64,000 nt of DNA from Bacilli bacterium (GCA_022482735.1 JAKVOO010000001.1:1295131-1359130); one strand, 5' to 3'; positions 40,584 through 57,739 are shown, numbered from the stretch's first letter. Numbers and translations are program-made. The notes: generated from the letters alone by a model not told the origin.

Positions 40584-40596
40584 TTAGGTAGATAAT

Positions 40597-41143: not shown

Positions 41144-41179
41144 GACGTCTTGGATTTAATCGTCTGAGATGTCTTTTTT
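41144..41179 (+). terminator. Terminator after protease-lipoprotein pair
   Basis: gacgtcttgga..tctgagatgtc (G-U rich) + T6. Confidence 0.6.
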
Positions 41180-41264
41180 GCCTTTTTAAATTCATTGTTT
41201 ATCATATATTCGGTCTTTTACTTAAAGAATATATTTCGATATAAAACTTGTGTCTATTAGATAA

Positions 41265-41510: not shown

Positions 41511-41662
41511 CTATTGAGAATGGACAATAAATTATATCAATTTTTAGAAAAGTCATCTTTAAGTTTATAATTGCTCTTTAACCGCTTGGAATAAATTAAT
41601 ATTGAATTTCCATAATTATCAATAATTTATGTATAAATTAAAAACGAAAATCTATTATTTTT

Positions 41663-42634
41663 TTAGTTTTCAAAAACAATTGAAGTTGGAAAAACTTTAT
41701 TGATATTTATCTGCTCGTTTTTCGACTTATTCGCATAGGCAATAATCTCGTCAACCGTAAATTCGATAATCTCTTCGTAATCAGCGGAGACACTATTGAT
41801 CTTTTCGATGATTTGATAGTACTTATTTAAATTATCATAGCCAAAAATCATAATTTTTTCGTGATAATTAATTGTTTTTAAAGCTCGCTTAAGGATTATG
41901 GCAAGATAATCACTAAAGCAGAATACGAAGTCGTACTTATTAAGTTTTATCGTGGCCAATGAACTCTTGATGATTTCATCATCGCTTACACCAGAAAAAG
42001 GAATAATATTTACATTTTTCTGATGATGGGCAAGTACGTCGCTAAAACCACTATACCGGCGATAACTGGTTTCACTAAAGGAATTGGTTAGAAAAAGGCC
42101 TTTTTTGTAATTGCTTTTCACAAAGTACTCTCCAACTTGTTTCCCTCCTTCATAGTCATCGGTATAGATAGAATTAATTTGTGGACTAGGGCTGTTGATT
42201 CCCACAAGAAAGAAAGGTAAATTTCGTTTCATGGTAAAGTCGGCTACTTCGTCTGTTGGTTCCACGAATGAAAGAATCGAAATGCATTTATTGTTTAGTA
42301 TTTCATAAATATCATCTAAAGCAACTAAATGCTTATTGGTAAAAAAGAAATTCGCCTGATATCCTTTGGCATTAATTTTTTTAATAGCAATATCACAGAG
42401 TGCAGCAAAGTACGGATTACGAAAATCATTGATAACAACCGCGATTGTTTTCGTAGTTCCACGTTTTAAAGACAATGCTAATCTATTGGGAACATACCCC
42501 ATTTCGGCAGCTAATTTTTTAACCGCTTCTTTGGTTGGTTCACTAATATCTTCGGCATCATTCAGTGCTTTTGATACTGCCGTGACGGATAATCCGAGTT
42601 GGCGGGCTAAATCTTTTAATGAAACATTTGTCAT
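41663..42634 (-). CDS. LacI-family transcriptional regulator
   Basis: SLKDLARQLGLSVTAVSKALND, GYVPN, NPYF, GYDN; divergent from glycan operon. Confidence 0.93.
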   Translation of the reverse strand: MTNVSLKDLARQLGLSVTAVSKALNDAEDISEPTKEAVKKLAAEMGYVPNRLALSLKRGTTKTIAVVINDFRNPYFAALCDIAIKKINAKGYQANFFFTNKHLVALDDIYEILNNKCISILSFVEPTDEVADFTMKRNLPFFLVGINSPSPQINSIYTDDYEGGKQVGEYFVKSNYKKGLFLTNSFSETSYRRYSGFSDVLAHHQKNVNIIPFSGVSDDEIIKSSLATIKLNKYDFVFCFSDYLAIILKRALKTINYHEKIMIFGYDNLNKYYQIIEKINSVSADYEEIIEFTVDEIIAYANKSKNEQININKVFPTSIVFEN

Positions 42635-42704
42635 ATTGCCTTTATTTTAGCAAATAAATTTTAAATAGATATAATTTCTTCAAAAGATTAGAAAAAGTTG
42701 CAAA

Positions 42705-42740
42705 AAAGCGCTTTACTTTAACGTTAAAGCGGTTTATTCT
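42705..42740 (+). promoter_or_regulatory. Operon promoter with LacI-type operator(s)
   Basis: TTTACT-N17-TATTCT; perfect palindrome CTTTAACGTTAAAG (42716-42729) flanked by AAAGCGCTTT and TAAAGCGGTTTA. Confidence 0.7.
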
Positions 42741-42761
42741 AAAAATGTAAAAGGACAGACC

Positions 42762-43688
42762 ATGAAAACAAGAAAGCACGCTATTTTGGGAATACTATTG
42801 CTATTGGTGACCGCTTGTAGCAATAATTCACCCGCGACAACCAGCACGGAAAGCAGTGAATCTATGGGTAATAATTTGAATAAGGTACAAGTCGTAGTTT
42901 TAGCCGGACAATCCAATATGGAGGGGCAATCGTGGATTCGCTTTTTATCAAAGCATTTTGCGGAAGATGTTGTTCAACAATACATTAATGGCTTTGATGG
43001 AGTATTAATAAACTATGATAGCAATCGTCATAGTAACCATTCCGGGGGAGAATTCGTTAAAACCAAAGTTGGTCAAGGAACGACAAGCGAACAATTTGGG
43101 CCGGAAGTTGGACTTGCTGAACAATTGAGCGGTCTAACCCTCGATGATGGGCCGGTTTATCTCGTAAAGTATGCCGTAGGTGCGACATCGCTATATAATA
43201 ACTGGGCTTCGCCTAGTTCTGGAAGAACGGGCGATTGTTACGCCGGTTTAGTGAGTCATGTCAATGCCAGTATAGCCAAACTTGAAAATTTAGATTTGTA
43301 TCCGGAGATTAAGGCGATTTGTTTTATGCAGGGTGAGGATGATTCTAATAGTTCGCAAGCGGAAAACTATGGCGCCAATCTTCGTCATTTTATTAGTGAT
43401 TTACGATCGGAATTTGGCTATTATGCTTCTAGCAAGGGAATTGGATTTATTGATGCCGGTATTAGTAATTCGTCAGCGTGGGCTCAATATCAAACAATTA
43501 ATGCCCAAAAGCAAGAAGTAGCTAATGAAGACGAGAATAACGTCTATGTCGATACCATCGCCAACAAACTTGAATTTATGAATGAACCGACAATTGGTGG
43601 CGATATCTATCATTTCGATAGTGCAAGTGAAATAAAATTGGGGCACCTATTTGCTAGCGCATTACTAGATAGCGACTTTGTTCGATAA
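42762..43688 (+). CDS. Lipoprotein SGNH carbohydrate O-acetylesterase (SASA/CE6-like)
   Basis: VTAC lipobox, S/T linker, LAGQSNM, FGPEVG, MQGEDD, DIYHF. Confidence 0.87.
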   Translation: MKTRKHAILGILLLLVTACSNNSPATTSTESSESMGNNLNKVQVVVLAGQSNMEGQSWIRFLSKHFAEDVVQQYINGFDGVLINYDSNRHSNHSGGEFVKTKVGQGTTSEQFGPEVGLAEQLSGLTLDDGPVYLVKYAVGATSLYNNWASPSSGRTGDCYAGLVSHVNASIAKLENLDLYPEIKAICFMQGEDDSNSSQAENYGANLRHFISDLRSEFGYYASSKGIGFIDAGISNSSAWAQYQTINAQKQEVANEDENNVYVDTIANKLEFMNEPTIGGDIYHFDSASEIKLGHLFASALLDSDFVR

Positions 43689-43706
43689 CAAAAATAAGGA
43701 GCCATT

Positions 43707-44879
43707 ATGAAATCTTTAAGTAAAATTCTCAGCACACTTTTACTAACTAATTTGCTTATCGGTTGTTCGACACCAGCAGGCAGTTCGTCTTCAAGCAGCG
43801 AACCATCAAGCGACAGTGAAGTAGTCAGCACAAATAATTTCTATGAGAACCCAATTTATCCTCTTTATAATGGTCAAAAAAAAGAGACATACTTAGCCGA
43901 CCCGTACGTAATTCGAGATGAAGATACACTTAAGTATTATATGTATACAACGCAGTCCGATGTTTTCATCGACGGAACCATAGGATCGGTTTTTAAGCGC
44001 GGCCCAATTTATGAAAGCATCGATTTAGTTAATTGGACTTATAAAGCGGATTCTTTTGTTAACTACACGCCGAATTGGGGAACAAGTGGCGCTGGAGTTT
44101 GGGCACCAACCGTGGTAAAAATTGGAGATTACTACAACCTATATTATAGTTTATCAACTGGTGGCGATGATAATCCCGGAATTGGTGTTGCTCGCAGTGA
44201 AACCCCATATGGGCCCTTTACCCATTATGGAAAGTTGTTTAATAGCGAGGAAATCGGTGTTACCAACTCCATTGACCCCCATGTATTAGTTGATAACGGT
44301 AAAGTCTATATGGTGTTTGGCAGCTATGGGGGTCTTATCTCACTTATAGAATTAACAAGCGATGGATTAGGTCTTCAAAATGGTGTTGAATATCAAAAAG
44401 AAAATAAAATTGCTCTTGCCGGGTATGAATTATATGAAATGAATAATTATGAAGCTTCATTAATTCTTCAATATAACGGCTATTACTATTTATTTCTTTC
44501 AACTGGAACCTGCTGTAGCGGAGTCAATTCTACCTATAACGTTGTTATCGCAAAAAGCGATAAAATAACCGGCCCATATTTAGATTCGCAAGGAAGAAAC
44601 ATGTTTGGACCTAAAAGAGGAGATACCGTTGTAGCTCCTTCCATTCAAGGCGCAATGGGCGTGGGGCATAATGGAATCGCGATGGATGATGCCGGAGACT
44701 TTTGGATGATATACCATGGATATGATACGCAAGGGGCAAAACCTGACTGGCGGGTTACCTATCTTGATAAGTTATATATTGATCCTGCAACCGAAATGTT
44801 TTATGTCAAAAATCGGCGAGCGAGCAACGGAGAATTACTCCCCGGACCATTTATCAATCAACTTGAAGGAGTAAGTTAG
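43707..44879 (+). CDS. Lipoprotein GH43 glycoside hydrolase
   Basis: LIGC lipobox; LADP, VWAP, NSIDP, YEA, TGTCC, GHN. Confidence 0.9.
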   Translation: MKSLSKILSTLLLTNLLIGCSTPAGSSSSSSEPSSDSEVVSTNNFYENPIYPLYNGQKKETYLADPYVIRDEDTLKYYMYTTQSDVFIDGTIGSVFKRGPIYESIDLVNWTYKADSFVNYTPNWGTSGAGVWAPTVVKIGDYYNLYYSLSTGGDDNPGIGVARSETPYGPFTHYGKLFNSEEIGVTNSIDPHVLVDNGKVYMVFGSYGGLISLIELTSDGLGLQNGVEYQKENKIALAGYELYEMNNYEASLILQYNGYYYLFLSTGTCCSGVNSTYNVVIAKSDKITGPYLDSQGRNMFGPKRGDTVVAPSIQGAMGVGHNGIAMDDAGDFWMIYHGYDTQGAKPDWRVTYLDKLYIDPATEMFYVKNRRASNGELLPGPFINQLEGVS

Positions 44880-44881
44880 GT

Positions 44882-46079
44882 ATGAGAAAAAATGCTCTTT
44901 TACCTTGGACTCTACTAAGTGTTCTAGTTCTAACCAGTTGCGGGCTTACGTCGTCTTCTCAAAGCGAGTCTCAAAGCGACTCAAAATCGACTTCCGTCAC
45001 CAGCGATGTCTCAACTAGCATCGATGAAAACACTTATAGTCGAACCCTCTATCAAAATCCATTAAAAACTGTTGATGAAAATGGGAACGAGTACTTTGTT
45101 GCAATTGCCGATCCGGATGTCATCTACGGCGAAGATGGGCTATTGGTATTTATATCCAACTAATACGCCCGTTCGCGATAACGAAGGCAATCAATTCTTT
45201 GACTTAGGACCAATATTTCAATCTAAGGATTTGATTACTTGGAAATGGGTTGGAAGTGTATTTCGGGATTATCCAGAAGCAATAAATTGGGGAAGCCCGG
45301 GAGCGGGAGTTTGGGCCCCAAGTGTTATCAAAGTTAATAATACATACAATTACTATTATTCATTGTCGACGTGGGGAGATGATAATCCTGGAATTGGTGT
45401 TGCGACTTCCTCAACTCCTTATGGACCTTGGACACATCACGGCCGGGTCTTAGATAGTGTGAGTTCGGGGGTTAAAAACTCAATTGATCCACAGGCAATA
45501 TACGATGGAAACGAATTATATTTACTTTGGGGCAGTTTTTTCGGAATAGCGGCAATTCGCTTAACCGATGATGGAGTTGAACCATTCTATGGCGCGGACT
45601 ACAAGAACAATATCCATTGGCTTATCGAAGATAATACAACCGGATCAATGAATATCAATATCAACTATGAAGGTAGTTATGTCTTTAAATACAATGGCCA
45701 GTATTACTATACCGGTTCACAGGGTTCCTGCTGTAGTGGATCGAGTAGCACCTATCGGGTGAAAGTAGGCGTCAGCAACTCATTATTTGGCCCCTATAAG
45801 GCGAGCAGTGGCGAAGAATTAAGCCAAGAACCTTATGGCGACTTAGTAATTGGCCCTAGTGATGATGTGGCCGGGACTGGTCACCATACCATCATTCAAG
45901 ATTTCGCTAGTCAATATTGGATTATCTATCATGGTTTTGATGTTAATGGACTAAATCCAAACGAAAGAATTCTTTTTATTGATCCACTTAAGTTTGATGA
46001 AGACACAGGGATGCCTTATGTCGAAAACTACGTGGCATCATATAAGACGAATAAATTAGGCCCAGTATTTTTAAAATAA
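44882..46079 (+). CDS. Lipoprotein GH43 glycoside hydrolase, paralog (split by +1 in GGG at ~45137-45139)
   Basis: LTSC lipobox and IADP in first ORF; VWAP, NSIDP, YEG, GSCC, GTGH in second; 398 aa when joined. Confidence 0.88.
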
Positions 46080-46091
46080 ATGGAGGATTTT

Positions 46092-47591
46092 ATGAAAAAA
46101 TCAAAGAAACTATTTACCGCTTTTTCCCTTATCACGCTTGCGCTTACCAGTTGTGGCAATGGCAGCAATTCAAATTCAAGCCTTCCTTCTTCGCTTGATG
46201 ATGGCGATATTGTACGCGATGAACAGGGAAACATAGTTTATAACAACGTTGATCTAACAATGTGGTCGGTAACTACAGGCGATGATGCTAAGACACAGGA
46301 TGATATTATTGCAGGTTTCAATGATATGTATTCGGGAATGATTAGTGTGGAAACCAGACATATTTCTCGCTATGACTTAGAAACGTTATTGCAATCAACA
46401 ATGGAATTTGACCGTAGCAATGCTCCCGACATTCTTTTCACCCATGGAGCCCGTGCGGCCGAATATGAAGATCGCGGATGGCTTCAACCGCTTAATCCTT
46501 ATTATGAAAAGGCCAATCTCGTATTGGATTTCGATGATTTTTCGACCTCGCTAATTGATGCCACAACCGTGGATAACTATGTTTATGGATTACCAATTGA
46601 TGTTCACTCGGCTATTTTAGAAATTCGGAGCGACATTTTGGAAAAGAATAATCTTCCCATCCCAACCAATTTTTCGGAGTTGATAAGCGTATCGCTTTCG
46701 GCAATAGAATTAGCTAGCCAAGGCAATCTTTGGATTCGGGGTGAAAATCCCAATAATATCCCAGCGGAAACATGGCGTAAGGCCAGTAGTCAAAGCCAGT
46801 ATTATCCCTTTCCATTCTCCTATGGCGATATGTGGGTTCATGAGTTTCTAGGTTATACGGTAGCGGCCCAAAATGGCGGTAAAATTGTCGATGAAAATGG
46901 CCTTCCCGCTTGGGATGATGAAGGAACAATTACTGGCCTTACAATGCTAAAGAATCTTCTTTTCCCTTCAGAAACCGGCGCAAATAACTATGCCTTATCA
47001 AAGGCTTATGGCAGCGACTATGATGTCGGTGATGCTCCATTTAGAAATGGAGAAGCAATATTCAAACTCAATGGTCCGTGGGTATATGAAAATGATATGA
47101 CGACATTTGACCGCGATTTAAAAAATGATGGTGGATCAGTAAACATCACGACAAGAAATCTTGGAAATCTCTTCGCGATTGATCCAAATAATGATAATGC
47201 TGGCCTTATTAAAGGCGAAGGGCATGCAATTATGCTACTCGAACAAGTAAGCAGCATGACCAAGAAAACAGCTGCGATGGTCTTTGCTGATTATATGGCC
47301 AATTACTCAGGAATTGAATGGGCTAAACGTGGACACATCCCCGCATTACAATCGGTTGCCACCAGCAGTGAATATACCGCGGATCCCGCCTATGAACAAT
47401 ATATCAAATATTGGGGCACTAGCACTGACTACATCGTTGTTCCCGCAACCAAAAATTACTCCTACATCGATTCCTATTTTAAACAGGGTTTACAACAGGT
47501 TCTCTCCTCGCAATTTGTCGATACGAGCGTTGATTCAATTATTGATTCCATGTATCAAGATTGCGTCGATTACATTCAACTATATTCATAA
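46092..47591 (+). CDS. Carbohydrate ABC transporter solute-binding lipoprotein
   Basis: LTSC lipobox; APDI, YGLPIDVH, FRNGEAIFKLNGPW, GHIPA. Confidence 0.9.
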   Translation: MKKSKKLFTAFSLITLALTSCGNGSNSNSSLPSSLDDGDIVRDEQGNIVYNNVDLTMWSVTTGDDAKTQDDIIAGFNDMYSGMISVETRHISRYDLETLLQSTMEFDRSNAPDILFTHGARAAEYEDRGWLQPLNPYYEKANLVLDFDDFSTSLIDATTVDNYVYGLPIDVHSAILEIRSDILEKNNLPIPTNFSELISVSLSAIELASQGNLWIRGENPNNIPAETWRKASSQSQYYPFPFSYGDMWVHEFLGYTVAAQNGGKIVDENGLPAWDDEGTITGLTMLKNLLFPSETGANNYALSKAYGSDYDVGDAPFRNGEAIFKLNGPWVYENDMTTFDRDLKNDGGSVNITTRNLGNLFAIDPNNDNAGLIKGEGHAIMLLEQVSSMTKKTAAMVFADYMANYSGIEWAKRGHIPALQSVATSSEYTADPAYEQYIKYWGTSTDYIVVPATKNYSYIDSYFKQGLQQVLSSQFVDTSVDSIIDSMYQDCVDYIQLYS

Positions 47592-47605
47592 GTAAAGGTT
47601 TCAAA

Positions 47606-48575
47606 ATGAAAAGAAATGCAAGTATGATGTCGATTGCTCACGAAAGAAGAAAACAAACAATTAAGAAAGGCCTTGGCATAAGTGTTTTCCTCGGTCCCTA
47701 TCTTATTAGTTTCATAATGTTTTTCCTTTTTCCCCTTCATCTTTGGCATCATTATTTCTCTTTCTAAATTTGATGGAACCTCGTTTATGCCATCGGGATT
47801 TAATGGTCTTAATAACTTCATTATGATTTTTACTAACCGAGTTTTGGTAAAAGATTTTTGGGGGAGCGTATGGACAACGATAAAATTTGCCCTCATTATC
47901 GTTCCTTTGAGTATCTTGATTCCTTTTGGTCTAGCAATGCTGATAAAAGTTCATCCTCCCGGCTATAAGTTTTTCCGGGCGGCTATCTATGTGCCGGGAA
48001 TATTTCCGTTAACAGCAACCGGGCTTATCCTGCTAAAAATGTTCAGTTTTCAAAATGGTTTTATCAACAATTTCTTTAACATTTCGGTCGATTGGTTTGG
48101 AGAAACTAATCTTGCTTGGTTTATGGTTGGATTATTCTGCATTTGGGGAGGTATCGGAGGAAACTTCATTATCCTTAATGCTGGATTAGAAAACATTGAC
48201 AATTCACTATATGAAGCCAGTCAAGTAGATGGAAGCAATAAGTGGCAGCAATTTCGTTACATTACGCTTCCGGGGGTCCGCTATCAATTATTATTGACTC
48301 TATTTACGACCTTTATCGGTTACATGAATCTATATGGCCAGCTCTTTATTTTAGCAAGCAATACTCCCGATCAAAATGCTATGAAAAGTGCGATTTATCG
48401 CATCCAGGATTTACTAATGGGCAGTAGTCGTTCATTTGGTTACGCCTCAGCAATGGGCATCTGTTTAGGAGCGATTATTGGTTTTATTGCTGTCTTACAA
48501 ATGATAATGACTAAAGATCGGAAAGGAGGCAATAAGCATGTTAAAGCGTACTTGGATTGGCAGAAACAAAAGTAA
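47606..48575 (+). CDS. Carbohydrate ABC permease 1 (split by +1 in C4 at 47732-47735)
   Basis: FLGPYLISF in first frame; FNGLNNF, LYEASQVDG (EAA loop), ITLP, GYASA. Confidence 0.88.
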
Positions 48576-49431
48576 AATTATTGCCTTCGTTATCCTTCTT
48601 CTTGTCAGTGTTATAGCCCTTTTACCAATTTTATGGGGCGTGGTTGGAAGCTTTAGGCACTATAGTGATTTCAATCTTTACCCGGAGAAGTTTTTCCCTT
48701 CAAATTGGAGTGCATTCACTTTAGATGGATATAAGGAATTGTTCTCCAAAACGGAGTATATCCCTTCTAATGCCAATGAGTGGTTTCCCATTTGGAATTG
48801 GATCTTGAACTCGTTTGTAGTTAGTATTGGGGGCACGCTCATCTACTTAGTTATTGCCTCGTTTGCCGCTTATGCATTTGTTTTCTTAGATTTCAAATAT
48901 AGCAATCGTCTTTTCCATATTCTTCTTTTATCAATGACGATTCCTGGCATCGTGACGATGACCCCGCAACTGATAAACATGAATTTACTTGGAGCATATA
49001 AATCGCTTTTAGGTCTAATTATTCCTTCATTTGGTGGTATTTATGGGGTTTTCCTCATCCGCCAGTTCTTCCTTGGAATTCCTAAAGATCTTGTGGAAAA
49101 TGCCAAAATGGACGGCGCCAGTAATTTTCAAATATATCGAAAAGTTGTCCTGCCTTTAGGAAAGAGTGTCATGTATGTTCAAGGTTTATTTGGTTTTATG
49201 AGTGCGTGGAACGATGTGCAATGGGCTCAACTTATTATCGGCAATGCTCCCCGCTCAACTTGGACTTTAGCCTACGGACTTAAAGTGATTAGTGATAACA
49301 GTGAAAGTTACCAGGCGATTACGTTAGCGCTAGCTAGTGCGGTCATCGCAATGATACCGATCTTCATTGTTTATTTAATTGCCCAGTCAAAAATAATCGA
49401 AGGCGTCGCTTTTACCGGCGTAAAGAGGTGA
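48538..49431 (+). CDS. Carbohydrate ABC permease 2
   Basis: LNSFVVS, AAYAF, RQFFLGIPKDLVENAKMDGA, WND, IIEGVAFTGVK. Confidence 0.92.
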   Translation: MLKRTWIGRNKSKIIAFVILLLVSVIALLPILWGVVGSFRHYSDFNLYPEKFFPSNWSAFTLDGYKELFSKTEYIPSNANEWFPIWNWILNSFVVSIGGTLIYLVIASFAAYAFVFLDFKYSNRLFHILLLSMTIPGIVTMTPQLINMNLLGAYKSLLGLIIPSFGGIYGVFLIRQFFLGIPKDLVENAKMDGASNFQIYRKVVLPLGKSVMYVQGLFGFMSAWNDVQWAQLIIGNAPRSTWTLAYGLKVISDNSESYQAITLALASAVIAMIPIFIVYLIAQSKIIEGVAFTGVKR

Positions 49432-50828
49432 AAAGTTTTATGAATCAAAACAAAGATTTAAATTACCCATTAGTCAGTGATAATGACAGTTTTATGGAGT
49501 TAATTGATGTTGAAAAAGTATATCCGAACGGCGTTCAGGCCGTATATAACTTTAACCTCGAAATTAAGCAAAATGACTTTGTCGCATTGGTTGGACCGTC
49601 GGGTTGCGGCAAATCCACGACCTTAAGAATGATTGCCGGTCTCGAAGAGGTCTCCGCAGGTGCCCTCTATATAAAAAGAAAATTTAGCAATTTTACCCCA
49701 TCAAAAGATAGGAATATTGCTATGGTCTTCCAAAGTTATGCGCTCTATCCGCAACTTACGGTTTTTGACAATATTGCCTTTGGACTAAGAATTCTTAAAG
49801 TTCCCAAGAAAGAAATCGAAGATCGGGTTTTTGCCGCCGCTTCAATTCTCGATTTGGGAAAGTATCTTGATCGTCGGCCAAAAGAGTTAAGTGGAGGTCA
49901 AATGCAACGGGTGGCGTTAGGAAGAGCTATCGTTCGCAAAGCGGATATTTTCCTTATGGATGAGCCCTTGAGTAATCTTGATGCCAAACTTCGTTTACAG
50001 ATGCGAGCGGAGATTGTTCGCATTCATAAAGAGGCACATGCGACAACCGTTTATGTTACCCATGATCAGACAGAAGCAATGACGATGGCCAATAAGATTG
50101 TAGTTATGAACAAAGGATTTATTCAACAGATTGATGCTCCAATGACAATCTATAATCATCCGAGTAATTTATTTGTTGCTAATTTTATCGGCGCTCCAGC
50201 GATGAACATTATAGATGCCACCTATTTTAACGGACAATTGAAATTTAGTGATCAAAGTATAGTCCAATTAAGTAGTGATGTTAACGCGCAGATACGAGCC
50301 TTCTTTGTTCGGGAAATTGCCGAACTTAAGCAGGTGCTACAAAACGAGAAAAATACCAGCACCTTCTTTAAACAATTAGATTCAAGACTCATCAAAGAAA
50401 ATGACACCAAAATAGATATCGTTCCCCAAAAAGAAGATTTTATTCATCGCCTTATTAATAGGTTTAAGCGGGTGAAGCCATCTAATACCGATACTAATCA
50501 AAGTGGGGCCAAAGACAGATTAGAAGAATTACTCACTGCGTATCAAAGTGCCCTTAAAAGTCCATATGCTTTGAAATTTGGTATTCGGCCCGAAGATATA
50601 AAGCTTGTTGCTAAAGATGAAAGTCCCGCCTTCGCTCTTAAGACAAAAACGACCTTTGTTGAGCCATTAGGTTCAGAGTACATCGTTCATACCGAATGGA
50701 ATAATAGTGACCTCATTGTCAAATTGGATGTGACAAGTGTGGTCGATAACGATCAGGAAGTCGTTTTGAAGTTGAACTTAGACAAAATACATTTATTTGA
50801 TCCCAACAATGGGAAAGCAATCTGCTAA
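49428..50828 (+). CDS. Sugar ABC ATPase (MsmK/MsmX/MalK-like) with C-terminal insertion
   Basis: GPSGCGKST, VFQSYALYP, LSGGQ, DEPLSNLDAKLR, VTHDQ, GIRPE. Confidence 0.93.
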   Translation: MKSFMNQNKDLNYPLVSDNDSFMELIDVEKVYPNGVQAVYNFNLEIKQNDFVALVGPSGCGKSTTLRMIAGLEEVSAGALYIKRKFSNFTPSKDRNIAMVFQSYALYPQLTVFDNIAFGLRILKVPKKEIEDRVFAAASILDLGKYLDRRPKELSGGQMQRVALGRAIVRKADIFLMDEPLSNLDAKLRLQMRAEIVRIHKEAHATTVYVTHDQTEAMTMANKIVVMNKGFIQQIDAPMTIYNHPSNLFVANFIGAPAMNIIDATYFNGQLKFSDQSIVQLSSDVNAQIRAFFVREIAELKQVLQNEKNTSTFFKQLDSRLIKENDTKIDIVPQKEDFIHRLINRFKRVKPSNTDTNQSGAKDRLEELLTAYQSALKSPYALKFGIRPEDIKLVAKDESPAFALKTKTTFVEPLGSEYIVHTEWNNSDLIVKLDVTSVVDNDQEVVLKLNLDKIHLFDPNNGKAIC

Positions 50829-50865
50829 CCATTAGAAAATAACAAATTCCAGAGGAGGATAAATC

Positions 50866-52686
50866 ATGCGAATTGTTAAAAAGTTACATGCTGTAGTCGT
50901 TGGATTAGTAGCAATTCTTGCTGTCGCTGGTTGCAGTGGAAGTGGGAGTTCCAATACGCTAGGAAACTCAGATAGCTCCATTACATCAACCAGTCCTTAT
51001 TCATTACAAATTACCGTCATTGGTAGTAGTGAGATTAGTGTTTCTAAAACTGTGCAACTAAGAAGTACCGTTACCGGAACCACGCAAAAAGATGTTACTT
51101 GGAGTAGTGCGGATGAAAGTATCGCTTCAGTTAGCGATCGGGGACTTGTAACCGGAATTAAAGAGGGGAAGACGAATATTACAGCGACATTAGATTTAGA
51201 TTCCAGTGTTAAAGCGACGGTTGAAATAACGGTTAATGCCGCTGCTTCTCCGACGGCGATTACAATCAGTGGTGCCACTTCCGGCCTCGCTTGGATTGAC
51301 GAAGATGTAAATCTTTCCGTAAGCGCCACCCCAGTTGAAGCTAGTGCCTTGGTTAATTGGGAATCATCAAATGAAGAGATTGCCACCGTAAGCCAAGAAG
51401 GAGCTGTCCATTTTCTTTCTCCAGGAAATATTGTAATCATGGCCACAAGCACTGCCGATGCCAATGTATCTGATTATCTAGAATTTGAAGTTAAATATGG
51501 AACCTTCTATAGCAATAAGGGAAGTTCTAATTGGGATATATCGCATCAAGCCGATGCCAATAATGCCAATATAAATCTTCCCGCAGAAGGAAGCTCAGGC
51601 TATAACGCCTTATATTTTAACCATTTTAAAGGTCAACGTTTCTATGCGGAAGGCTTTTTCAAAACAGGTGATTTGACTGATGATGCTTGGGCATGGCAAG
51701 GAATTGGCGTCGGAACAGGTCTTAGTGATAGCGATAGCCGTTTCTTTACATTTTCTCCTTTTGCTCCTGGGCAAGGAAATAATCACAACAAAACCATCGT
51801 TCGTGATTGGCCCACAACTTGGGGCGAACTTACTGATCGGTCGCAAGTATGGGGGGAGAATGGTCTTAATCAATTAGATAGTAAAGATGGCATCAAAATC
51901 GCAATGATACGCGATTATAACACCTATTACTATCTTATAAACGACAAATTATTCTGGGTGGATGAAACAACAAAATATGCAGATACGGACACCTATCCAA
52001 TTTTTATTGGATTTGATATTCCAGTTACGGTTACAAACTATGAGTTGATTAGTGATGACGCCGAGATTAATTCTATTTTAGCGGGAAGTGCTTTTGATAA
52101 ATCATTCTTTACTACGGGAGACGTGACCTACATTGATGATAGTGATTTCACCTTTAATAGTACGACGACATTAAGTAAAGATCACAAGATTAGAAGTTTG
52201 GGTGACAAAACCAAACTATATGGCAATTTCGAAGTTTCTTTTGATGTTGACAATATGACTTTTAATGGAGAGAAAGAATCCATTTTCCGGGGATTGAGTG
52301 TTAACTTTGTTCGCTATAATCAAGCGAACATCAACGAATCAATCTTACTTGGTCGGAGTGGACTTCAGGGTGGTAGCGACATCAAATCGCGTTATATGAG
52401 TTGGGACTATCAAAAGAGTATGGAAGACCCTACTTCCGTTATTAAAGATAACGAAACCACAAGTGCTGTGACTTCTGTATCATCCACGATGCATGTCAAA
52501 ATTCAGCGGATAGTCGATGAGGAATTTGCTGAATTTAAGGTTTATGTCAATGAGCAGTTGGTAAGTTACGACTATAACAGCAATAAAACTGGTGTTTACT
52601 ATACCGGAGCCTATCTTCTTTGGGTAGGTGGCGAATATAGCGGTAGCCATGTCACTAACTTTGTTTTCAATAATTTGGGAAATTAA
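50866..52686 (+). CDS. Lipoprotein with two Big_2-type Ig domains and an unrecognised Trp-rich beta domain
   Basis: VAGC lipobox; VTWSSADESIASVSDRGLVT and VNWESSNEEIATVSQEGAV repeats; WGELTDRSQVWG motif. Confidence 0.75.
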   Translation: MRIVKKLHAVVVGLVAILAVAGCSGSGSSNTLGNSDSSITSTSPYSLQITVIGSSEISVSKTVQLRSTVTGTTQKDVTWSSADESIASVSDRGLVTGIKEGKTNITATLDLDSSVKATVEITVNAAASPTAITISGATSGLAWIDEDVNLSVSATPVEASALVNWESSNEEIATVSQEGAVHFLSPGNIVIMATSTADANVSDYLEFEVKYGTFYSNKGSSNWDISHQADANNANINLPAEGSSGYNALYFNHFKGQRFYAEGFFKTGDLTDDAWAWQGIGVGTGLSDSDSRFFTFSPFAPGQGNNHNKTIVRDWPTTWGELTDRSQVWGENGLNQLDSKDGIKIAMIRDYNTYYYLINDKLFWVDETTKYADTDTYPIFIGFDIPVTVTNYELISDDAEINSILAGSAFDKSFFTTGDVTYIDDSDFTFNSTTTLSKDHKIRSLGDKTKLYGNFEVSFDVDNMTFNGEKESIFRGLSVNFVRYNQANINESILLGRSGLQGGSDIKSRYMSWDYQKSMEDPTSVIKDNETTSAVTSVSSTMHVKIQRIVDEEFAEFKVYVNEQLVSYDYNSNKTGVYYTGAYLLWVGGEYSGSHVTNFVFNNLGN

Positions 52687-52730
52687 TCCAAACAAAAAGT
52701 TTGGTTAATGTAAAAAGATAAGGAGGAAAA

Positions 52731-54359
52731 ATGAAAAAAACGAAGCTTTTTACAAATTTGTTTTCACTATCAATGGTCGCATTACTATTGGCTGCATGTG
52801 GCGGTCAAACTAGTAGCACTTCAAGCGAAGGCCTGACAAGTGAAACCCCGACGACAAGTGAAAATTCGGTTACAAGTGAAGAACCGACATCCACTTCCAT
52901 CAGTGAGTCTAGTTCAGAAGATTTGACGACGATAGCGGTTACTAATACGGAAGAGGGGGCTTGGGTAGGGGATACCCTCCAAATCACTTATGAGTCGAAT
53001 AAGGCCTTAGGTGATCAAGATTTAACTTTTGCTAGCAGTGACGAAGAAGTTGCAACTGTTTCTGAATCGGGTTTAATTACCTTCTTAAAAGCGGGAAACG
53101 TTACCATCTCAGTGACGCTTAAGACGGATATCGCCGTCAGTGATAATTTTAGTCTTGCTGTTAAAGATGAGATGATTGATCAAGCCTATGCTTTTGGAAA
53201 TCTTGATTTTACAAATATTCGGGCGGAGAATCCGAGTGTTACAACCACTAAGACGAATGCCGATTGGCCATATGTCGAAGGGGTGTTTAAAAATGTTTAT
53301 GGTCAGAAGTATTATGCCTCAGCGACCTTTGCTATTACCGAAGTAAACTATGGCTGGACCTGGAATCGGGTTGCTATCGGTCATCGGGATCGACCAGCTG
53401 TTGAAGGCGATCACGTTTGGCGGGGATATAACTTGTCCTATGGTGACGCTTCGGGTAATCAGAAAAAGTCGGTGATGATGGAAACTCCTAACAATTGGGG
53501 TGAAACAACCGATCGTTCACAAGTATGGGGTCTTAATGGCTTAGCTCAATTATCCTTTGGAGTTGATGCCGATAGTGTTAAATTATCGACAATTCGCGAT
53601 GGAAATGAGTATTTCTACTTTGTTAACGATAAACTTGCATGGCAAGAAAAATATGACCAACGGTTTTTGGATGTTGACACAATGCCAACATTTGTTGTTG
53701 GAGATATGCATGCGACAATTAGCGACTTTGCAGTTGAAACTGACAGTGAAGCGATTGACGCCATGCTTAATGGAGCGGAAGCCAGCCGCTTGTTGTATCC
53801 AACCTATGCCAGCAATGTAAGTGTTGATGATGCCGCCAAAACGATAACTTTTGCTAACGCCGCCGCAAGTTGGCCTTGGAATAATATCAAAGATAATGCC
53901 GCTAAATCGCTCGGAGATGCTTTCTCGCTTCCAGCCGCTAACGCGTCAGTATCATTCGACTTTGCGGTTGCTAATTATGTTGATCCAGATAGTGCGGCTT
54001 TGACATTAACACTCAATCAATGGGGAACGAATAGCGCCTCTAATGGACCAAGTGAAGCGGTAACCTTTATGTTTGGAAAGGATAGTGCCGGCATTACTGT
54101 GTGGAATAGTAACGGCGACCTACCAGTTACTCCCAATATGTCACTAGCCTATCCAACGGCTTTACAAGCAACTAATTCGGTGACGATTACTAGGACGATT
54201 GTAGAGGGAAATACCTATTTCACCTTAGAAATTAATGGTGAAACGGTTGACTTAAATTCCTGGTATTTCGGTGGCTATGCGCTGCCTTATACGATGTCAT
54301 TTGGTTCTCGTCAGGTTAATGCGACTGTCAGTAACTATCAAGTGTCAATTTTAGACTAA
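52731..54359 (+). CDS. Paralogous lipoprotein with one Big_2-type Ig domain and the same Trp-rich domain
   Basis: LAAC lipobox, long S/T/E stalk, FASSDEEVATVSESGLIT, WGETTDRSQVWG. Confidence 0.75.
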   Translation: MKKTKLFTNLFSLSMVALLLAACGGQTSSTSSEGLTSETPTTSENSVTSEEPTSTSISESSSEDLTTIAVTNTEEGAWVGDTLQITYESNKALGDQDLTFASSDEEVATVSESGLITFLKAGNVTISVTLKTDIAVSDNFSLAVKDEMIDQAYAFGNLDFTNIRAENPSVTTTKTNADWPYVEGVFKNVYGQKYYASATFAITEVNYGWTWNRVAIGHRDRPAVEGDHVWRGYNLSYGDASGNQKKSVMMETPNNWGETTDRSQVWGLNGLAQLSFGVDADSVKLSTIRDGNEYFYFVNDKLAWQEKYDQRFLDVDTMPTFVVGDMHATISDFAVETDSEAIDAMLNGAEASRLLYPTYASNVSVDDAAKTITFANAAASWPWNNIKDNAAKSLGDAFSLPAANASVSFDFAVANYVDPDSAALTLTLNQWGTNSASNGPSEAVTFMFGKDSAGITVWNSNGDLPVTPNMSLAYPTALQATNSVTITRTIVEGNTYFTLEINGETVDLNSWYFGGYALPYTMSFGSRQVNATVSNYQVSILD

Positions 54360-54370
54360 AAAATAAATTG

Positions 54371-54398
54371 GTTGCTAGGGGAGAGATCCCCTAGCAAC
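54371..54398 (+). promoter_or_regulatory. Intercistronic 12-bp hairpin with GAGA tetraloop and no U tract
   Basis: gttgctagggga-GAGA-tcccctagcaac. Confidence 0.7.
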
Positions 54399-54409
54399 AT
54401 CAAAGAAAT

Positions 54410-56593
54410 ATGGTAATTATGATAAATTTTGATCGTCAACGAAAAACATTTTGCCTTCGAAATCGCTATTTATCCTATTGGTTTTATGTAAATGAAGCCA
54501 ATATTCTTCAGCATCTATTTTTGGGAAGTCCGCTTGCGGATATTAATCTACTTGCACTTACGAATTTGGATACCGATTGGTCGCGAACTTATCTTGATAA
54601 AAATACCAATCTGGAAGGTAGCTATCAAGATGCTTTTTACGACGGAAAATCAATGATGGAAATTCCCGGTTTTGGTTATGCGGATAAACGGGGAGCAAGT
54701 TTTATAATTGAAGATAGTAATAAAAATGTAGCCACGGATTTTCGTTATGTAAGTCATCGTATTTATCAAGGCAAGCCCCTTCTTAGCCAAATGCCTTGCT
54801 TTCGGGATGAAGGTAATGTTCAAACACTGGAAATTACGCTTCAGGATTTAAAGCGCGACATTACTTTGTTAGCGTCTTATACAATTTATGAGGATTATTC
54901 TTTGATTCTTCGGAATAATCAAATAATTAATAATGAAGAACAGCCGATTATTATTAGACGGGCCTACTCGCTAAATCTGGACCTACCCTCAAAAGACTAT
55001 TCACTCATTCATTTTCCGGGTGATTGGTGTAATGAAAGACGGGAAGTAGAAGAAGAAATAGATTATGGCTTAAAACGGCTATATTCGAATTTAGGTCGTA
55101 GTAGCCATGAAGAAAATCCCTTTGCATTTATCAAAGAAAAAGATGCAGGTGAGTATCAGGGAACTTGCTATGCCTTTTCCTTTGTTTATAGTGGTAATTT
55201 TGCCATCGATATTAATGTTGATAAGTTAAAGATGACGCGTGTTCAAGTTGGGATAAACGATGAGCAATTTGCTTGGAATTTAGCAAGTAAACAATCATTT
55301 GTGACACCCGAAGGGCTGATTGTATATTCCGCGAAAGGAATAAATGGCTTAACCCAAACGATACATGATATAACGCGCGAAAAACTCATTAATAAGCATT
55401 TCGTCAATAAAGATCGCCCCATTATGCTCAATAGTTGGGAAGGCTGTTATATGGACTTTAATACGGAAAAAATCATTCGCTACATTGATGATGTCGTCAG
55501 TATGGACGCGGAATTATTTGTTCTAGATGACGGGTGGTTTGGTCAGCGCAATGATGATAATACAAGCCTTGGCGATTGGACAGTTAATACCCAAAAGATC
55601 GATTTAAAGCGTATTATCGAACACTGTCATTCACTCGGACTGAAGTTTGGCTTATGGTTTGAGCCAGAGATGATCAACCCGCAAAGCGACTTATTTCGCC
55701 ACCATCCTGAATTTGCCTTGGGAGATCCGAAAGTAAATAGGTCCTTGTCTCGTCATCAATTAGTTCTTGATACGGCCAATAAAGCGGCAATTGATAATGT
55801 GTATTCGCAAATTATAACTATTCTTGATAACTATGATATTGACTATGTTAAGTGGGATCATAATCGAAATGTGGCGGACGCCTTTAGTTTGGCGGTATCA
55901 AATTATCAGCAGGGTGAAGTCTATCATCGATTAATGCTTGGAAGTTATGAATTAATAAATCGTATTGTTACTCGCTATCCCAACATTTTATTTGAAAGTT
56001 GTGCTTCCGGTGGTGGACGCTTTGATTTAGGGATGCTCTATTATATGCCCCAAGTATGGACAAGCGATGAAATGGATCCTTTGCAACGGTTATTTATCCA
56101 ATATTCTACCTCTCGTCTTTATCCGTTATCGACGATGGGTGCACATGTGGGGAAACATAATACAGCCATCTACTCAACTAAAGCCAAGATTAGTTGCCTA
56201 GGTATATTCGGTTATGAATTTGATCCGAAGACACTGGATGCTGAGCAAAAAAAAGCGGTTCTTGATGTGGCTTCAGTTTATAAACGTAACCGAAACTTAA
56301 TATATTCGGGTGATGTATATCATCTTTTGACCCCCTATAAGCAGAATTACATGAGTCTTTTAGTTGTCAGTAAGGATAAAAGGCAGGGCTTATGTCTTTT
56401 TAGCAATTTAAAGAAAGAAAATATTGAGTATCGATTTTTAAAATTAAAAGGGCTTGATCCCCAAAAAAAGTACTTTAATTCGTTTGACCATCAAGCTTAT
56501 TTAGGCAGCTACTATATGGATGTTGGCATCAATCTCTGTAAAGGGCTAACTTTTTTGGAAACATATTTAATCGAAATAACGATAGAAGAATGA
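54410..56593 (+). CDS. GH36 alpha-galactosidase (cytoplasmic)
   Basis: YSGNF, NSWEG, FVLDDGWFG, FGLWFEPEM, YVKWDHNR, CASGGGRFD, WTSD. Confidence 0.93.
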   Translation: MVIMINFDRQRKTFCLRNRYLSYWFYVNEANILQHLFLGSPLADINLLALTNLDTDWSRTYLDKNTNLEGSYQDAFYDGKSMMEIPGFGYADKRGASFIIEDSNKNVATDFRYVSHRIYQGKPLLSQMPCFRDEGNVQTLEITLQDLKRDITLLASYTIYEDYSLILRNNQIINNEEQPIIIRRAYSLNLDLPSKDYSLIHFPGDWCNERREVEEEIDYGLKRLYSNLGRSSHEENPFAFIKEKDAGEYQGTCYAFSFVYSGNFAIDINVDKLKMTRVQVGINDEQFAWNLASKQSFVTPEGLIVYSAKGINGLTQTIHDITREKLINKHFVNKDRPIMLNSWEGCYMDFNTEKIIRYIDDVVSMDAELFVLDDGWFGQRNDDNTSLGDWTVNTQKIDLKRIIEHCHSLGLKFGLWFEPEMINPQSDLFRHHPEFALGDPKVNRSLSRHQLVLDTANKAAIDNVYSQIITILDNYDIDYVKWDHNRNVADAFSLAVSNYQQGEVYHRLMLGSYELINRIVTRYPNILFESCASGGGRFDLGMLYYMPQVWTSDEMDPLQRLFIQYSTSRLYPLSTMGAHVGKHNTAIYSTKAKISCLGIFGYEFDPKTLDAEQKKAVLDVASVYKRNRNLIYSGDVYHLLTPYKQNYMSLLVVSKDKRQGLCLFSNLKKENIEYRFLKLKGLDPQKKYFNSFDHQAYLGSYYMDVGINLCKGLTFLETYLIEITIEE

Positions 56594-56604
56594 GGTAGAT
56601 ATTT

Positions 56605-57504
56605 ATGAAAGAAAAATTATTGCTATCAGAAATACATATGCGCGATCCATTCGTTTTTGTTGATCAAAAACAGCATCAATATTGTCTTTTCGGTACCACC
56701 GCGGATGGGTCAAAAGGGCGTTTTGAAATGTATATTAGTGATGATTTAGTTAATTTTAAAGGACCATATGTGGTTTTTGATTTGAAGGATAACGATAATT
56801 TTTGGGGGAAAGAAGATTTATGGGCACCGGAAGTCTATTATGTCGAGTCGCTTAAAAGTTATTTAATGTTTGCTACCTTTCATTCGCAAGATCACAAACG
56901 AAATACAGTGGCTTTAATTACCGATGATCTCTATAAACATGCCTTCACTCTTTATAGTGACAAGATTACGCCTTCAATGATGACTAATCTTGATGGAACT
57001 TTGTTCTATGAAAAGCAACAACCGCGCATCATTTTTTGCCATGAATGGCTGGAGATTAATGATGGTTCATATGTGTATGGAAAATTATCTCAAGATTTAA
57101 AGCAAATCGAAGAGGATAGTTTAAAAGTCCTTTTCCGTGCCAGTGAGATTCCTTGGAGTGTCTCCCCCTCCTTTTCTAAAAATGGCAATGATTATATTAG
57201 CGATGGACCATATGTAATCAAAAAGGGAGCCTGCCAATTTTTGCTGTACTCAACTTTTGGCGAAAACGGTTACCAAACCGGATATTGCTATACGAAGAAT
57301 AAGTGGAAAAGTATCCATCATAGCCAAGAGCCGTTAATTGAAAAAAATGCTGGGCATTCGATGGTGTTTACCGGTTTTGATCACAATGACTACATTATTT
57401 ATCATGCCAACAATGATTCTCCTGATGTTGTGCCAACTATTAAGCGAATCACAATAAAGAAAGGCGGGCTATTTTCTAAACCTCGTCTTATAGTGGCGGC
57501 TTAA
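56605..57504 (+). CDS. Cytoplasmic GH43 glycoside hydrolase (different subgroup)
   Basis: MRDPFV, LWAPEV, LDGTLF, FCHEW, SDGP, AGHSM; no signal peptide. Confidence 0.85.
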   Translation: MKEKLLLSEIHMRDPFVFVDQKQHQYCLFGTTADGSKGRFEMYISDDLVNFKGPYVVFDLKDNDNFWGKEDLWAPEVYYVESLKSYLMFATFHSQDHKRNTVALITDDLYKHAFTLYSDKITPSMMTNLDGTLFYEKQQPRIIFCHEWLEINDGSYVYGKLSQDLKQIEEDSLKVLFRASEIPWSVSPSFSKNGNDYISDGPYVIKKGACQFLLYSTFGENGYQTGYCYTKNKWKSIHHSQEPLIEKNAGHSMVFTGFDHNDYIIYHANNDSPDVVPTIKRITIKKGGLFSKPRLIVAA

Positions 57505-57571
57505 ATGTTTTTAAGCATGGATTAAATTTTAAAAGTCAATTTAAGTCTATAATAAGATGATAAACTTGGCT

Positions 57572-57598
57572 AAAAGTCTCTATAAATGAGACTTTTTT
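57572..57598 (+). terminator. Terminator closing the glycan operon
   Basis: aaaagtctc..gagactttttt. Confidence 0.8.
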
Positions 57599-57739
57599 CA
57601 TTGTTTGAAATAAAGCCAATTGATTAATTTGAAGTCATCCTTTAAGCGCGAGATTTAATCGGTAAAATTACTATCAATTGACACTTTTATTTAACGAATA
57701 AAGGTATATACTAACTAGGTGAAATGAGGTGCATTTTCT

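Follow-up and report, generated by a model that had tools for sequence, protein, structure and literature searches.

A probable Gram-positive polysaccharide utilization locus with lipobox-bearing surface proteins in a small-genome Bacilli bacterium

Introduction

A Gram-positive polysaccharide utilization locus (gpPUL), as defined in the cited part of Sheridan et al. 2016 (PMC5320581), contains one or more enzymes that degrade polysaccharides, a system for carbohydrate transport and a regulator of transcription. Here we describe a locus of this kind in a stretch of 64,000 nucleotides from a Bacilli bacterium (GCA_022482735.1, JAKVOO010000001.1:1295131-1359130), further referred to as the window. 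The window corresponds to the interval G000:C1:1295131-1359130 of a genome of 1.497 Mb, which is assembled in two contigs, has 38% GC and is 94% complete. The locus occupies positions 41663–57600, counted from the first letter of the window, and consists of a minus-strand LacI-family gene standing opposite 11 plus-strand genes, as follows from gene calls and Pfam matches.

Uncultured Bacilli with small genomes are common in guts and anaerobic digesters, and little has been described of how they feed with neither sortase-anchored nor cellulosomal enzymes. Several known systems resemble the locus in part. Arabinan clusters of Bacillus and Geobacillus combine an extracellular GH43 enzyme of the arabinanase clade, an ATP-binding cassette (ABC) importer of oligosaccharides and an intracellular GH43 enzyme. 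Raffinose/melibiose operons of the msm type include a sucrose phosphorylase or a GH32 partner. According to the cited part of PMC9655821, characterised arabinan clusters carry araA, araB and araD, and their enzymes are assigned to GH43_4/5/6. The gpPULs of Roseburia/Eubacterium rectale and Blautia producta, as far as described in the cited parts of PMC5320581 and PMC10318527, degrade the glycan at the surface, import oligosaccharides and finish them in the cytoplasm. Their surface enzymes are large multimodular proteins bearing carbohydrate-binding modules (CBMs) and are held by sortase-type or other anchors. Free-standing surface glycan-binding proteins (SGBPs) are lacking from such loci, the CBMs being placed on the enzymes instead, in the account given by the cited part of PMC10318527.

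Results

Proposed function of the locus

We read the locus as a LacI-controlled gpPUL operon of 11 genes, all extracellular components of which are lipid-anchored on flexible stalks. The probability of this reading, with the proposed pathway and sugar included, is estimated at about 0.62. In the proposed mechanism, Ig1 and Ig2, two paralogous lectin-domain lipoproteins, would capture a glycan at the cell surface, an esterase related to SASA/CE6 would strip its O-acetyl groups, and GH43a and GH43b, both lipoproteins without CBMs, would cut it to oligosaccharides. These would then be passed by a lipoprotein solute-binding protein (SBP) to a CUT1-type ABC importer with its own ATPase, and the predicted cytoplasmic GH36 alpha-galactosidase and the small GH43c would complete the breakdown.

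All three components named in the gpPUL definition were found. Three GH43 proteins, one GH36 and one SASA esterase score above the Pfam cut-offs and presumably act on a polymer. Transport is represented by an SBP with SBP_bac_8/1 domains, two BPD_transp_1 permeases and an ABC_tran+TOBE ATPase. The regulator is the divergent LacI-family gene, which is found with the cassette in nine of 20 related loci.

An earlier sequence-only reading of the window had suggested a LacI-divergent operon in which surface binding and deacetylation are followed by cleavage, import and cytoplasmic finishing. All its genes were found where it had placed them, including the permeases, the dedicated ATPase and the signal-less GH36 and GH43 enzymes; both GH36 and GH43c lack a hydrophobic N-terminus. 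The architecture is supported by gene order, lipobox conservation, the presence of Lgt and LspA, and promoter- and terminator-like sites, whereas the substrate named in that reading, an O-acetylated galactose/furanose glycan, is not borne out to the same degree and has some contextual support. The genome-reduced lineage postulated there agrees with the 1.5-Mb genome.

Lipoboxes and predicted surface anchoring

Lipoboxes were read from the translations of the esterase (VTAC), GH43a (LIGC), GH43b (LTSC), SBP (LTSC), Ig1 (VAGC) and Ig2 (LAAC). Each of the six is preceded by a basic N-terminus and then a hydrophobic stretch. The stalk following the cysteine is Ser/Thr-rich in five proteins; that of the SBP is Ser/Asn-rich, with Ser and Thr accounting for just 23% over 40 residues, so the Ser/Thr-rich stalk earlier ascribed to all six holds for five. 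In the AlphaFold models, residues 1–63 of Ig2 and residues 1–37 of the esterase are disordered.

A strict lipobox pattern was matched by 88 of the 99 orthologues of the six surface proteins, as compared to none of the 92 orthologues of GH36, GH43c, the permeases, the ATPase and LacI. By orthologue set, the counts are 15/15 for SBP and 18/18 for Ig1, and 0/16 for GH36 and 0/19 for GH43c. In the 11 surface-protein orthologues missed by the pattern, the signal peptide still ends in a cysteine, and the mismatch is due to odd residues at positions −3/−2 or to a short n-region. Hence the topology is a conserved feature of the cassette, and the lipoboxes assumed in the sequence-only reading are supported by orthologues and controls alike. 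Lgt and LspA are encoded in the genome, both with scores above the cut-offs, and no sortase was found in this 94%-complete assembly.

A crude genome-wide scan yielded 86 lipobox matches, about a dozen of which are obviously false, among 1526 open reading frames (ORFs) of at least 100 aa (~5.6%). Given this background, six lipobox proteins among 12 genes correspond to a binomial tail of 2e-5. However, credible lipobox ORFs are grouped in several glycan loci of this genome, and therefore this value reflects functional clustering and not an anomaly. Judging from the predicted proteins, the locus is one case of a genome-wide lipoprotein habit.

Conservation of the cassette

Using a profile of the Ig proteins, we found the cassette in 20 loci of other species-level genomes. 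Most of these are gut metagenome-assembled genomes (MAGs), labelled by the submitters as uncultured Bacilli, CAG:449, Candidatus Alloenteromonas, Mollicutes, Clostridiales etc. The gene order of the window, GH43a-GH43b-SBP-permease-permease-ATPase-Ig1-Ig2, is retained in 15 of the 20 loci; the remaining five lie on short or edge contigs, and the part of this order that they show is consistent. Thus the synteny across related MAGs by which the earlier proposal could be checked was observed. GH36 is situated between Ig2 and GH43c in 17 loci and is missing from three (L010, L022 and L027). The esterase gene is located 3' of GH43c in 16 loci and upstream of GH43a in one (L023), as in the window, and the nine LacI orthologues (36–41% identity) are found at the 3' end of the cassette. 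As the esterase gene in most relatives and LacI in nine lie at the 3' end, the pair appears to have moved to the 5' end in the window.

Full-length Ig1 orthologues are present in 11 of 151 genomes of the order, the genome of the window included, and these belong to four families. Such a patchy distribution is what an accessory cassette would be expected to show if it is mobile. In two MAGs labelled Clostridiales the cassette is flanked by genes for large serine recombinases and LexA/S24-type proteins (L016 17570–19435, L017 19687–21231), which hints that it may travel on integrative elements.

Sequences nearly identical to the locus (at least 0.82 of sampled words) were found in 19 DNA runs from 12 studies. 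Most are metagenomes of bioreactor sludge, sludge and wastewater; wood-decay runs and one gut metagenome are also represented.

Predicted surface and cytoplasmic enzymes

The esterase matches Pfam SASA with 94.4 bits at a cut-off of 24.8. The nucleophile S51 (the serine of GQSN) and the residues D281 and H284 do not vary among 12 orthologues, nor does the lipobox cysteine C19. A search of its sequence against PDB gave no match at E≤0.001. The AlphaFold2 model (pLDDT 87.6) was compared with known structures by Foldseek; the nearest folds, with E from 1e-11 to 1e-10, are the CE6-like 2apj and 1zmb (putative acetylxylan esterase) and the sialate O-acetylesterase NanS (3pt5). By family profile, residues and modelled fold, the protein is assigned to the SASA/CE6-like SGNH carbohydrate O-acetylesterases.

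The Pfam GH43 scores are 168, 138 and 73 bits for GH43a, GH43b and GH43c, respectively, at a cut-off of 32.2. GH43a and GH43b are paralogues with about 44% identity; GH43a comprises a single five-bladed-propeller domain, and no CBM was detected by Pfam in either protein. Their closest solved relatives are endo-alpha-1,5-arabinanases, Arb43A (1gyd, E 2e-30) and AbnB-type enzymes (E 1e-26). The NCBIfam arabinanase equivalogs AbnA and BT0367 score 107/96 bits with GH43a and 83/83 bits with GH43b and do not reach their cut-offs of 480/800. By sequence, GH43a and GH43b are thus placed as distant members of the arabinanase clade and not as orthologues of these enzymes. The catalytic Asp/Asp/Glu residues of GH43a (D65, D190 and E249) are invariant in 16 sequences, and GH43b keeps the two that fall in its C-terminal part.

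The closest PDB match of GH43c is 5c0p, deposited as 'endo-arabinase' (E 7.5e-37), with 3kst and 4qqs further off. The enzyme of the 4qqs entry (HoAraf43 group) hydrolyses para-nitrophenyl-alpha-L-arabinofuranoside (pNP-alpha-L-Araf), according to the cited part of PMC4356313. D14, D130 and D200 of GH43c are invariant in 20 sequences. At the position of D200 all 20 have Asp, where GH43a and GH43b carry the general-acid Glu, and 5c0p likewise has Asp; the GH43c group may use a different acid catalyst.

GH36 matches the Pfam N-terminal, Melibiase and C-terminal domains of the family with 225, 406 and 41 bits and aligns with AgaA/AgaB (4fnq/4fnr) over residues 5–689 (E 2e-162). The score against the BAD_1528 equivalog is 80 bits at a cut-off of 1100. 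No signal peptide was found in the sequence. These matches assign the protein to the AgaA-type alpha-galactosidases.

A second LacI-controlled lipoprotein locus is present at G000:C1:830790-848555 (L038, L039). It contains four GH43 paralogues of GH43a/b (38–53% identity), one of them split, and encodes lipoproteins with CBM4_9 and with a Cthe_2159 domain, one of each. An SBP, two permeases and GH2 fragments also belong to this locus, which is adjoined by a GH32-like gene and a gene for an FGGY kinase of the xylulokinase type.

Importer

Sequence matches of the SBP in PDB are weak. The ATPase matches NCBIfam UgpC in two stretches, as it has about 100 extra residues (roughly 286–384) between the nucleotide-binding core and TOBE, along with an N-terminal extension of 20 residues. 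Its orthologues have 463–491 aa and retain the extra length.

Ig1 and Ig2

The paralogous Ig1 and Ig2 share 29% identity (E 1e-37) in an alignment that covers the lectin-like region. No Pfam family matches the C-terminal 400 aa of Ig1, and beyond Big_2 neither protein matches any Pfam or NCBIfam family. Ig2 consists of a 45-aa stalk, one Big_2 domain and sandwiches at residues 148–345 and 347–542. In the fold comparison of its AlphaFold2 model (pLDDT 81.4, predicted template modelling score 0.78), the sandwiches match CBM66 (Z 14.4), a legume-lectin-like domain (Z 13.9) and SPRY (Z 13.6), and also DUF1080, galectins, laminin G and the two-domain BT3469. The resemblance to CBM66 (4b1m) is one of fold only, at 9% identity, in a region that has no Pfam or NCBIfam match.

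Invariance in the Ig alignments is seen mainly at Trp, Arg, Gln, Lys, Ser and Thr residues, with a T-x-R-S-Q-x-W motif of the first sandwich at the centre. No conserved acidic pair is seen in these alignments: D14 is the sole invariant acid of the first sandwich, and D243 lies in the second.

Thirty relatives of the Ig proteins were returned by a word-indexed search in 5.8 billion proteins. Among 1.84 billion representatives, 201 matched a profile of the C-terminal region at E≤0.001, 59 of them at E≤1e-30. In 16 long relatives picked for a domain scan from the 150 listed, repeated copies of the first sandwich are accompanied by GDSL/SGNH esterase domains in seven cases and by GH43 domains in three; GH88, BNR or CBM9 domains were seen in others. 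The GH43 domains fused to lectin regions (P0087, P0093) share 24–31% identity with GH43a over part of its length, so the fusions connect classes of enzymes and not orthologues. Elsewhere the domain-1 module occurs beside GH43 and acetylesterase domains, and in this locus it forms lipoproteins of its own; it is therefore best read as a carbohydrate-binding module. Sequence and model together suggest that Ig1 and Ig2 are probably free-standing surface glycan-binding proteins; by the profile searches they form a small unannotated family.

A search of the Atlas with the lectin region of Ig2 returned hypothetical clusters and weak leads only. An additional Ig2-type lectin region was observed in L023 (about 9971–12766), where the copies are apparently fused in one frame of 1053 aa. 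One protein from the representative search (P0032) has the same length as this frame.

Frameshifts in GH43b and permease 1

Two genes of the operon are interrupted in this assembly, each by a one-base frameshift. In GH43b it lies near 45137–45140 and yields ORFs 44882–45163 and 45072–46079. The lipobox is therefore found on a separate ORF of 93 aa, and most of the catalytic domain on an ORF of 335 aa. In permease 1 the frameshift falls in the TTTTTCCCC run at 47727–47735, after about 44 residues. Both sites are homopolymer runs, and the permease site resembles a mix of two allelic spellings.

Contigs of three DNA runs from three studies were aligned to the locus. The base at 45140 is omitted in all three, and so is the extra base of permease 1, at 47727 in two runs and at 47732 in one. 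One contig of 29 kb is collinear across the entire locus and differs by 100 substitutions, with gaps at these two sites only. Orthologues are intact as well, GH43b being a single ORF of 384–408 aa in most loci and permease 1 having 322–337 aa. The same assembly contains further split genes, among them several ABC ATPases, a GH43 paralogue, a kinase and an isomerase. Within the window, a gene for an FtsY-like signal recognition particle (SRP) receptor with SRP54_N and SRP54 GTPase domains (5950–6937) is split into ORFs 5950–6612 and 6539–6937; as this gene is essential, its splitting suggests indel errors in the assembly. Since the frameshifts are missing from all three other populations, they are probably assembly indels, or at most strain-private lesions, and the genes would be intact in the population. 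Programmed frameshifting in GH43b and permease 1 was considered and rejected, because the other populations simply lack the base.

Layout, regulatory signals and neighbourhood

The features of the locus are listed in Table 1. Intergenic gaps across the operon range from −38 to +50 nt. Short gaps, a common strand and the promoter-like and terminator-like sites at the two ends fit the layout of a single transcription unit. RNA from one metatranscriptome run (X20) yielded three tiny contigs located on SBP and permease 1 only; three such short pieces carry no information on co-transcription.

Table 1. Coordinates of genes and predicted signals of the locus (positions in the window)
Feature	Positions	Strand	Basis and remarks
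LacI-family repressor gene	41663-42634	-	Pfam LacI helix-turn-helix (HTH) + Peripla_BP_4/1; divergent from operon
Promoter-like site TTAGCA-17-TATAAT	42647-42675	+	Upstream of operon
Perfect palindrome TTTAACGTTAAA	42717-42728	+	14 bp including flanking C/G; candidate LacI operator
SASA esterase, lipoprotein	42762-43688	+	Pfam SASA
GH43a, lipoprotein	43707-44879	+	Pfam GH43
GH43b, lipoprotein	44882-46079	+	Pfam GH43; frameshift-split in this assembly
SBP, CUT1 type, 503 aa, lipoprotein	46080-47591	+	Pfam SBP_bac_8, SBP_bac_1
ABC permease 1, MalF/UgpA-like	47606-48575	+	Pfam BPD_transp_1; frameshift-split in this assembly
ABC permease 2, MalG/UgpE-like	48538-49431	+	Pfam BPD_transp_1; NCBIfam UgpE/MalG-like
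MsmK/UgpC-like ABC ATPase, 466 aa	49428-50828	+	Pfam ABC_tran 41-181, TOBE_2 385-457
Ig1, lipoprotein	50866-52686	+	Pfam Big_2 x2 + tandem lectin-like region; putative surface glycan-binding protein
Ig2, lipoprotein	52731-54359	+	One Big_2 + two concanavalin/lectin-like beta-sandwiches; putative surface glycan-binding protein
GC-rich hairpin, 12 bp	54371-54398	+	Between Ig2 and GH36; no T-tail on + strand
GH36 alpha-galactosidase, AgaA type, predicted cytoplasmic	54410-56593	+	Pfam GH36 N, Melibiase, C domains
GH43c, single-domain, predicted cytoplasmic	56605-57504	+	Pfam GH43
Terminator-like hairpin + T-run	57572-57600	+	Closes operon

The best NCBIfam match of LacI scores far under any equivalog cut-off. 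The palindrome upstream of the esterase gene is a candidate LacI operator. Its exact 12-mer occurs once in the window, and relaxed matches number 13 as compared to 10 expected, that is, no excess over chance. The 10-mer core TTAACGTTAA was found in none of the 41 fetched loci, so we can only infer an operator role. The GC-rich hairpin separates the gene of the last surface protein from that of the first cytoplasmic enzyme; it could act as an RNA stabiliser or attenuator, so that the two operon halves would differ in transcript level.

Just upstream of LacI, positions 38000–42000 have a low GC content (28–32% vs about 40%) and may be an inserted islet. This stretch contains an HTH_3 regulator gene (37531–38334) and two ORFs without a Pfam family (39177–40583 and 40597–41061). 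Downstream of the locus, the minus strand carries an Endonuclease_1-family gene (485 aa, 59515–60972) and a GH2 gene (62549–63910).

Sugar catabolism in cassette-bearing genomes

Genes of sugar catabolism were looked for in 16 cassette-bearing genomes (that of the window, ten relatives from the order and five further ones), with completeness of 69–97% where stated. AraA, represented by AraA_N, was found in none of the 16. For XylA, one of the 16 has fragments scoring under the cut-off; in the genome of the window neither XylA nor AraD was detected. GalK was found in 15 of the 16, the window's genome included. In one related locus (L011) galT and galK immediately follow the cassette, and in two genomes (G032 and G050) GalK lies about 8–9 kb from Ig1 on the same contig. 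Given the lack of AraA, the single fragmented XylA and the nearly universal GalK, galactose is the likelier harvested sugar, and the genomic evidence makes it most likely the one kept by the cell. Across the order, AraA_N occurs in three of 151 genomes, none of which has the cassette; AraA being rare order-wide, its absence is a physiological constraint and not a specific association.

A xylulokinase is also encoded in the window's genome. Elsewhere in it, at G000:C1:1062160-1067919 (L041 2160–7919), genes for an AraC/PocR regulator, a DUF4432 protein, a split FucI-like isomerase, a split FGGY kinase and a class-II aldolase are found together. This looks like a ketose-1-phosphate pathway for some sugar, with both splits resembling frameshifts.

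Discussion

Alternative explanations

Several observations weigh against the gpPUL reading as a whole or against its galactose part. Three of the 20 related loci lack GH36, the candidate operator is not conserved in relatives, and RNA coverage is limited to the three tiny contigs mentioned above. The lectin fold is generic and uninformative on the ligand. Concerning the sugar, the nearest relatives of GH43a/b are endo-alpha-1,5-L-arabinanases, and those of GH43c are an 'endo-arabinase' and an arabinofuranosidase, all of which point to arabinose and not galactose. The rarity of AraA in the whole order makes its absence from cassette-bearing genomes unspecific, the MAGs are incomplete, and the xylulokinase together with the operon of FucI-like isomerase, kinase and aldolase leaves room for unconventional pentose use. 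The interruption of GH43b and permease 1 in the window's own sequence would also agree with decay of the locus in this strain, with real frameshifts, a dead importer and an operon reduced to a cluster of pseudogenes. We consider this most improbable, as the extra bases are missing at both sites from all three other populations, including that of the collinear contig, both sites are homopolymer runs, one of them like two blended allelic spellings, splits of the same style affect the essential FtsY and other genes of the assembly, and the remaining genes of the operon are all intact. Somewhat better, yet still improbable, are the odds that Ig1 and Ig2 are adhesins or undiscovered enzymes of a new GH or polysaccharide lyase (PL) family rather than binders of the glycan processed here. 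The concanavalin-like fold does house GH16, PL7 and DUF1080 (3-keto-disaccharide hydrolase), all seen among the fold matches; BT3469, the top two-domain match, was deposited as 'putative glycosyl hydrolase', and a 3keto-disac_hyd lead came from the feature search of the Atlas. On the other hand, D14 has no invariant acidic partner, D243 being in the other sandwich, the Ig genes always stand between the ATPase and GH36, and domain 1 behaves as a repeated accessory module beside true catalytic domains, as CBMs do.

Regarding the substrate, both furanosidic residues (alpha-L-Araf-like or beta-D-Galf-like) and alpha-galactosyl residues are most likely present in the target glycan. With galactose as the sugar kept by the cell, the main options are two: a plant glycan with alpha-galactosylated arabinofuranosyl residues, the arabinose of which is not used, or a microbial glycan of galactofuranose (Galf) and alpha-Galp. 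Under the more conventional explanation, the locus would serve plant arabinan or side chains of arabinogalactan: the surface GH43 proteins would be endo/exo alpha-L-arabinanases, GH36 and GH43c would split imported products of the alpha-Gal-(1->3)-Ara type, and L-arabinose would be wasted, cross-fed or used via an unrecognised pathway. The arabinanase relatives of GH43a/b, the link of GH43c to 5c0p and the pNP-alpha-L-Araf activity in the HoAraf43 group speak for it, as do the occurrence of the organism in plant-fibre-rich digester, wood-decay and gut samples and the split isomerase/kinase/aldolase operon; moreover, Bifidobacterium longum pairs surface arabinofuranosidases with GH36 for gum arabic, as reported in the cited part of PMC8939339. 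It is nevertheless a rather unlikely explanation, if a real one. The arabinanase equivalog scores (83–107 bits) stay far from the cut-offs of 480–800, AraA was found in none of the 16 cassette-bearing genomes and AraD was not detected in the window's own, one lineage has galT and galK next to the cassette, and GH51, araA, araB and araD, which characterised clusters have according to the cited part of PMC9655821, are absent from the cassette. The other option would dedicate the cassette to microbial Galf glycans, such as O-acetylated beta-D-Galf/alpha-D-Galp wall polymers of bacteria or fungi (galactan-I-like, galactofuranan). Beta-D-Galf and alpha-L-Araf share the same ring stereochemistry. 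Another GH43 subfamily, GH43_34, holds both Galf and Araf activities, as stated in the cited part of bioRxiv 10.1101/2021.10.27.466152, and so there is room for the galactose/furanose substrate guessed earlier; a cassette dedicated to such glycans is still doubtful. If it were so, GH43a/b would be endo- or exo-beta-D-galactofuranosidases, a new specificity for that clade of GH43, GH43c and GH36 would free Galf and alpha-Galp in the cytoplasm, all of it entering the Leloir pathway, and Ig1/Ig2 would represent, with their lectin domain, a new CBM family for these glycans.

Implications

The gpPUL reading implies a design suited to a small genome, in which single-domain enzymes and separate lectin lipoproteins, held on lipid-anchored stalks, would feed an ABC importer in a compact and portable arrangement. 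Through the locus a small unannotated family of proteins is defined, together with a module found again in giant surface proteins that bear GH43 or esterase domains; this module is a good candidate to found a new family of CBMs. Arabinanase-like enzymes fit badly with genomes that have galactokinase and no arabinose or xylose isomerase, and this discrepancy offers a concrete, testable prediction on GH43 specificity.

Comparison with known systems

The sequence-only reading allowed for the cassette turning out to be a known arabinan or raffinose locus gene for gene; it matches neither. With the arabinan clusters of biogas-reactor Firmicutes (cited part of PMC9655821) it shares an extracellular GH43 of the arabinanase clade, an ABC importer of oligosaccharides and an intracellular GH43. 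It differs by the lack of GH51, araA, araB and araD, so that no canonical L-arabinose regulon (araA, araB and araD with glycanases) is formed, and by the addition of GH36, the SASA esterase and two lectin lipoproteins. Like raffinose/melibiose operons of the msm type, the locus has an AgaA-type GH36, a CUT1 ABC importer and an MsmK-like ATPase. However, Pfam detected no sucrose phosphorylase or GH32 in it, GH36 is dispensable in some copies (absent in 3/20), and the presence of surface enzymes and of binding proteins implies a polymer as the substrate. The gum-arabic arabinogalactan protein (AGP) system of Bifidobacterium longum likewise employs surface furanosidases and GH36 on side chains of the alpha-Gal-Ara type; it relies on a GH39 GAfase and multidomain GH43_22/34 enzymes, and neither lipoprotein anchoring nor an esterase or lectin lipoproteins appear in the cited part of PMC8939339.

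The closest class is that of the described gpPULs of Roseburia/Eubacterium rectale and Blautia producta (cited parts of PMC5320581 and PMC10318527), which have the same combination of a regulator, enzymes and an ABC importer with a lipoprotein SBP and the same succession of steps. Instead of their large CBM-bearing enzymes, the locus has small CBM-less lipoproteins; binding is assigned to two separate lipoproteins, the ATPase is encoded within the operon, and no sortase was detected in the genome. A pair of free-standing binding lipoproteins is an unusual feature for a Gram-positive PUL.

In this last respect the locus is reminiscent of the Sus-like PULs of Bacteroidetes, where lipid-anchored surface enzymes and non-catalytic glycan-binding lipoproteins are likewise encoded beside a transporter and finishing enzymes. 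No TonB-dependent receptor or SusD family came up when the 16 ORFs of the locus were all scanned with Pfam; there is no outer membrane to cross, import is by an ABC transporter, and the putative binding proteins come from an unrelated, unannotated family. The analogy with a Bacteroidetes PUL drawn in the sequence-only reading is therefore reasonable in function, although SusC and SusD are lacking and gpPULs are an already described class. If the proposed pathway is correct, the layout of the locus functionally converges on that of the Bacteroidetes PULs.

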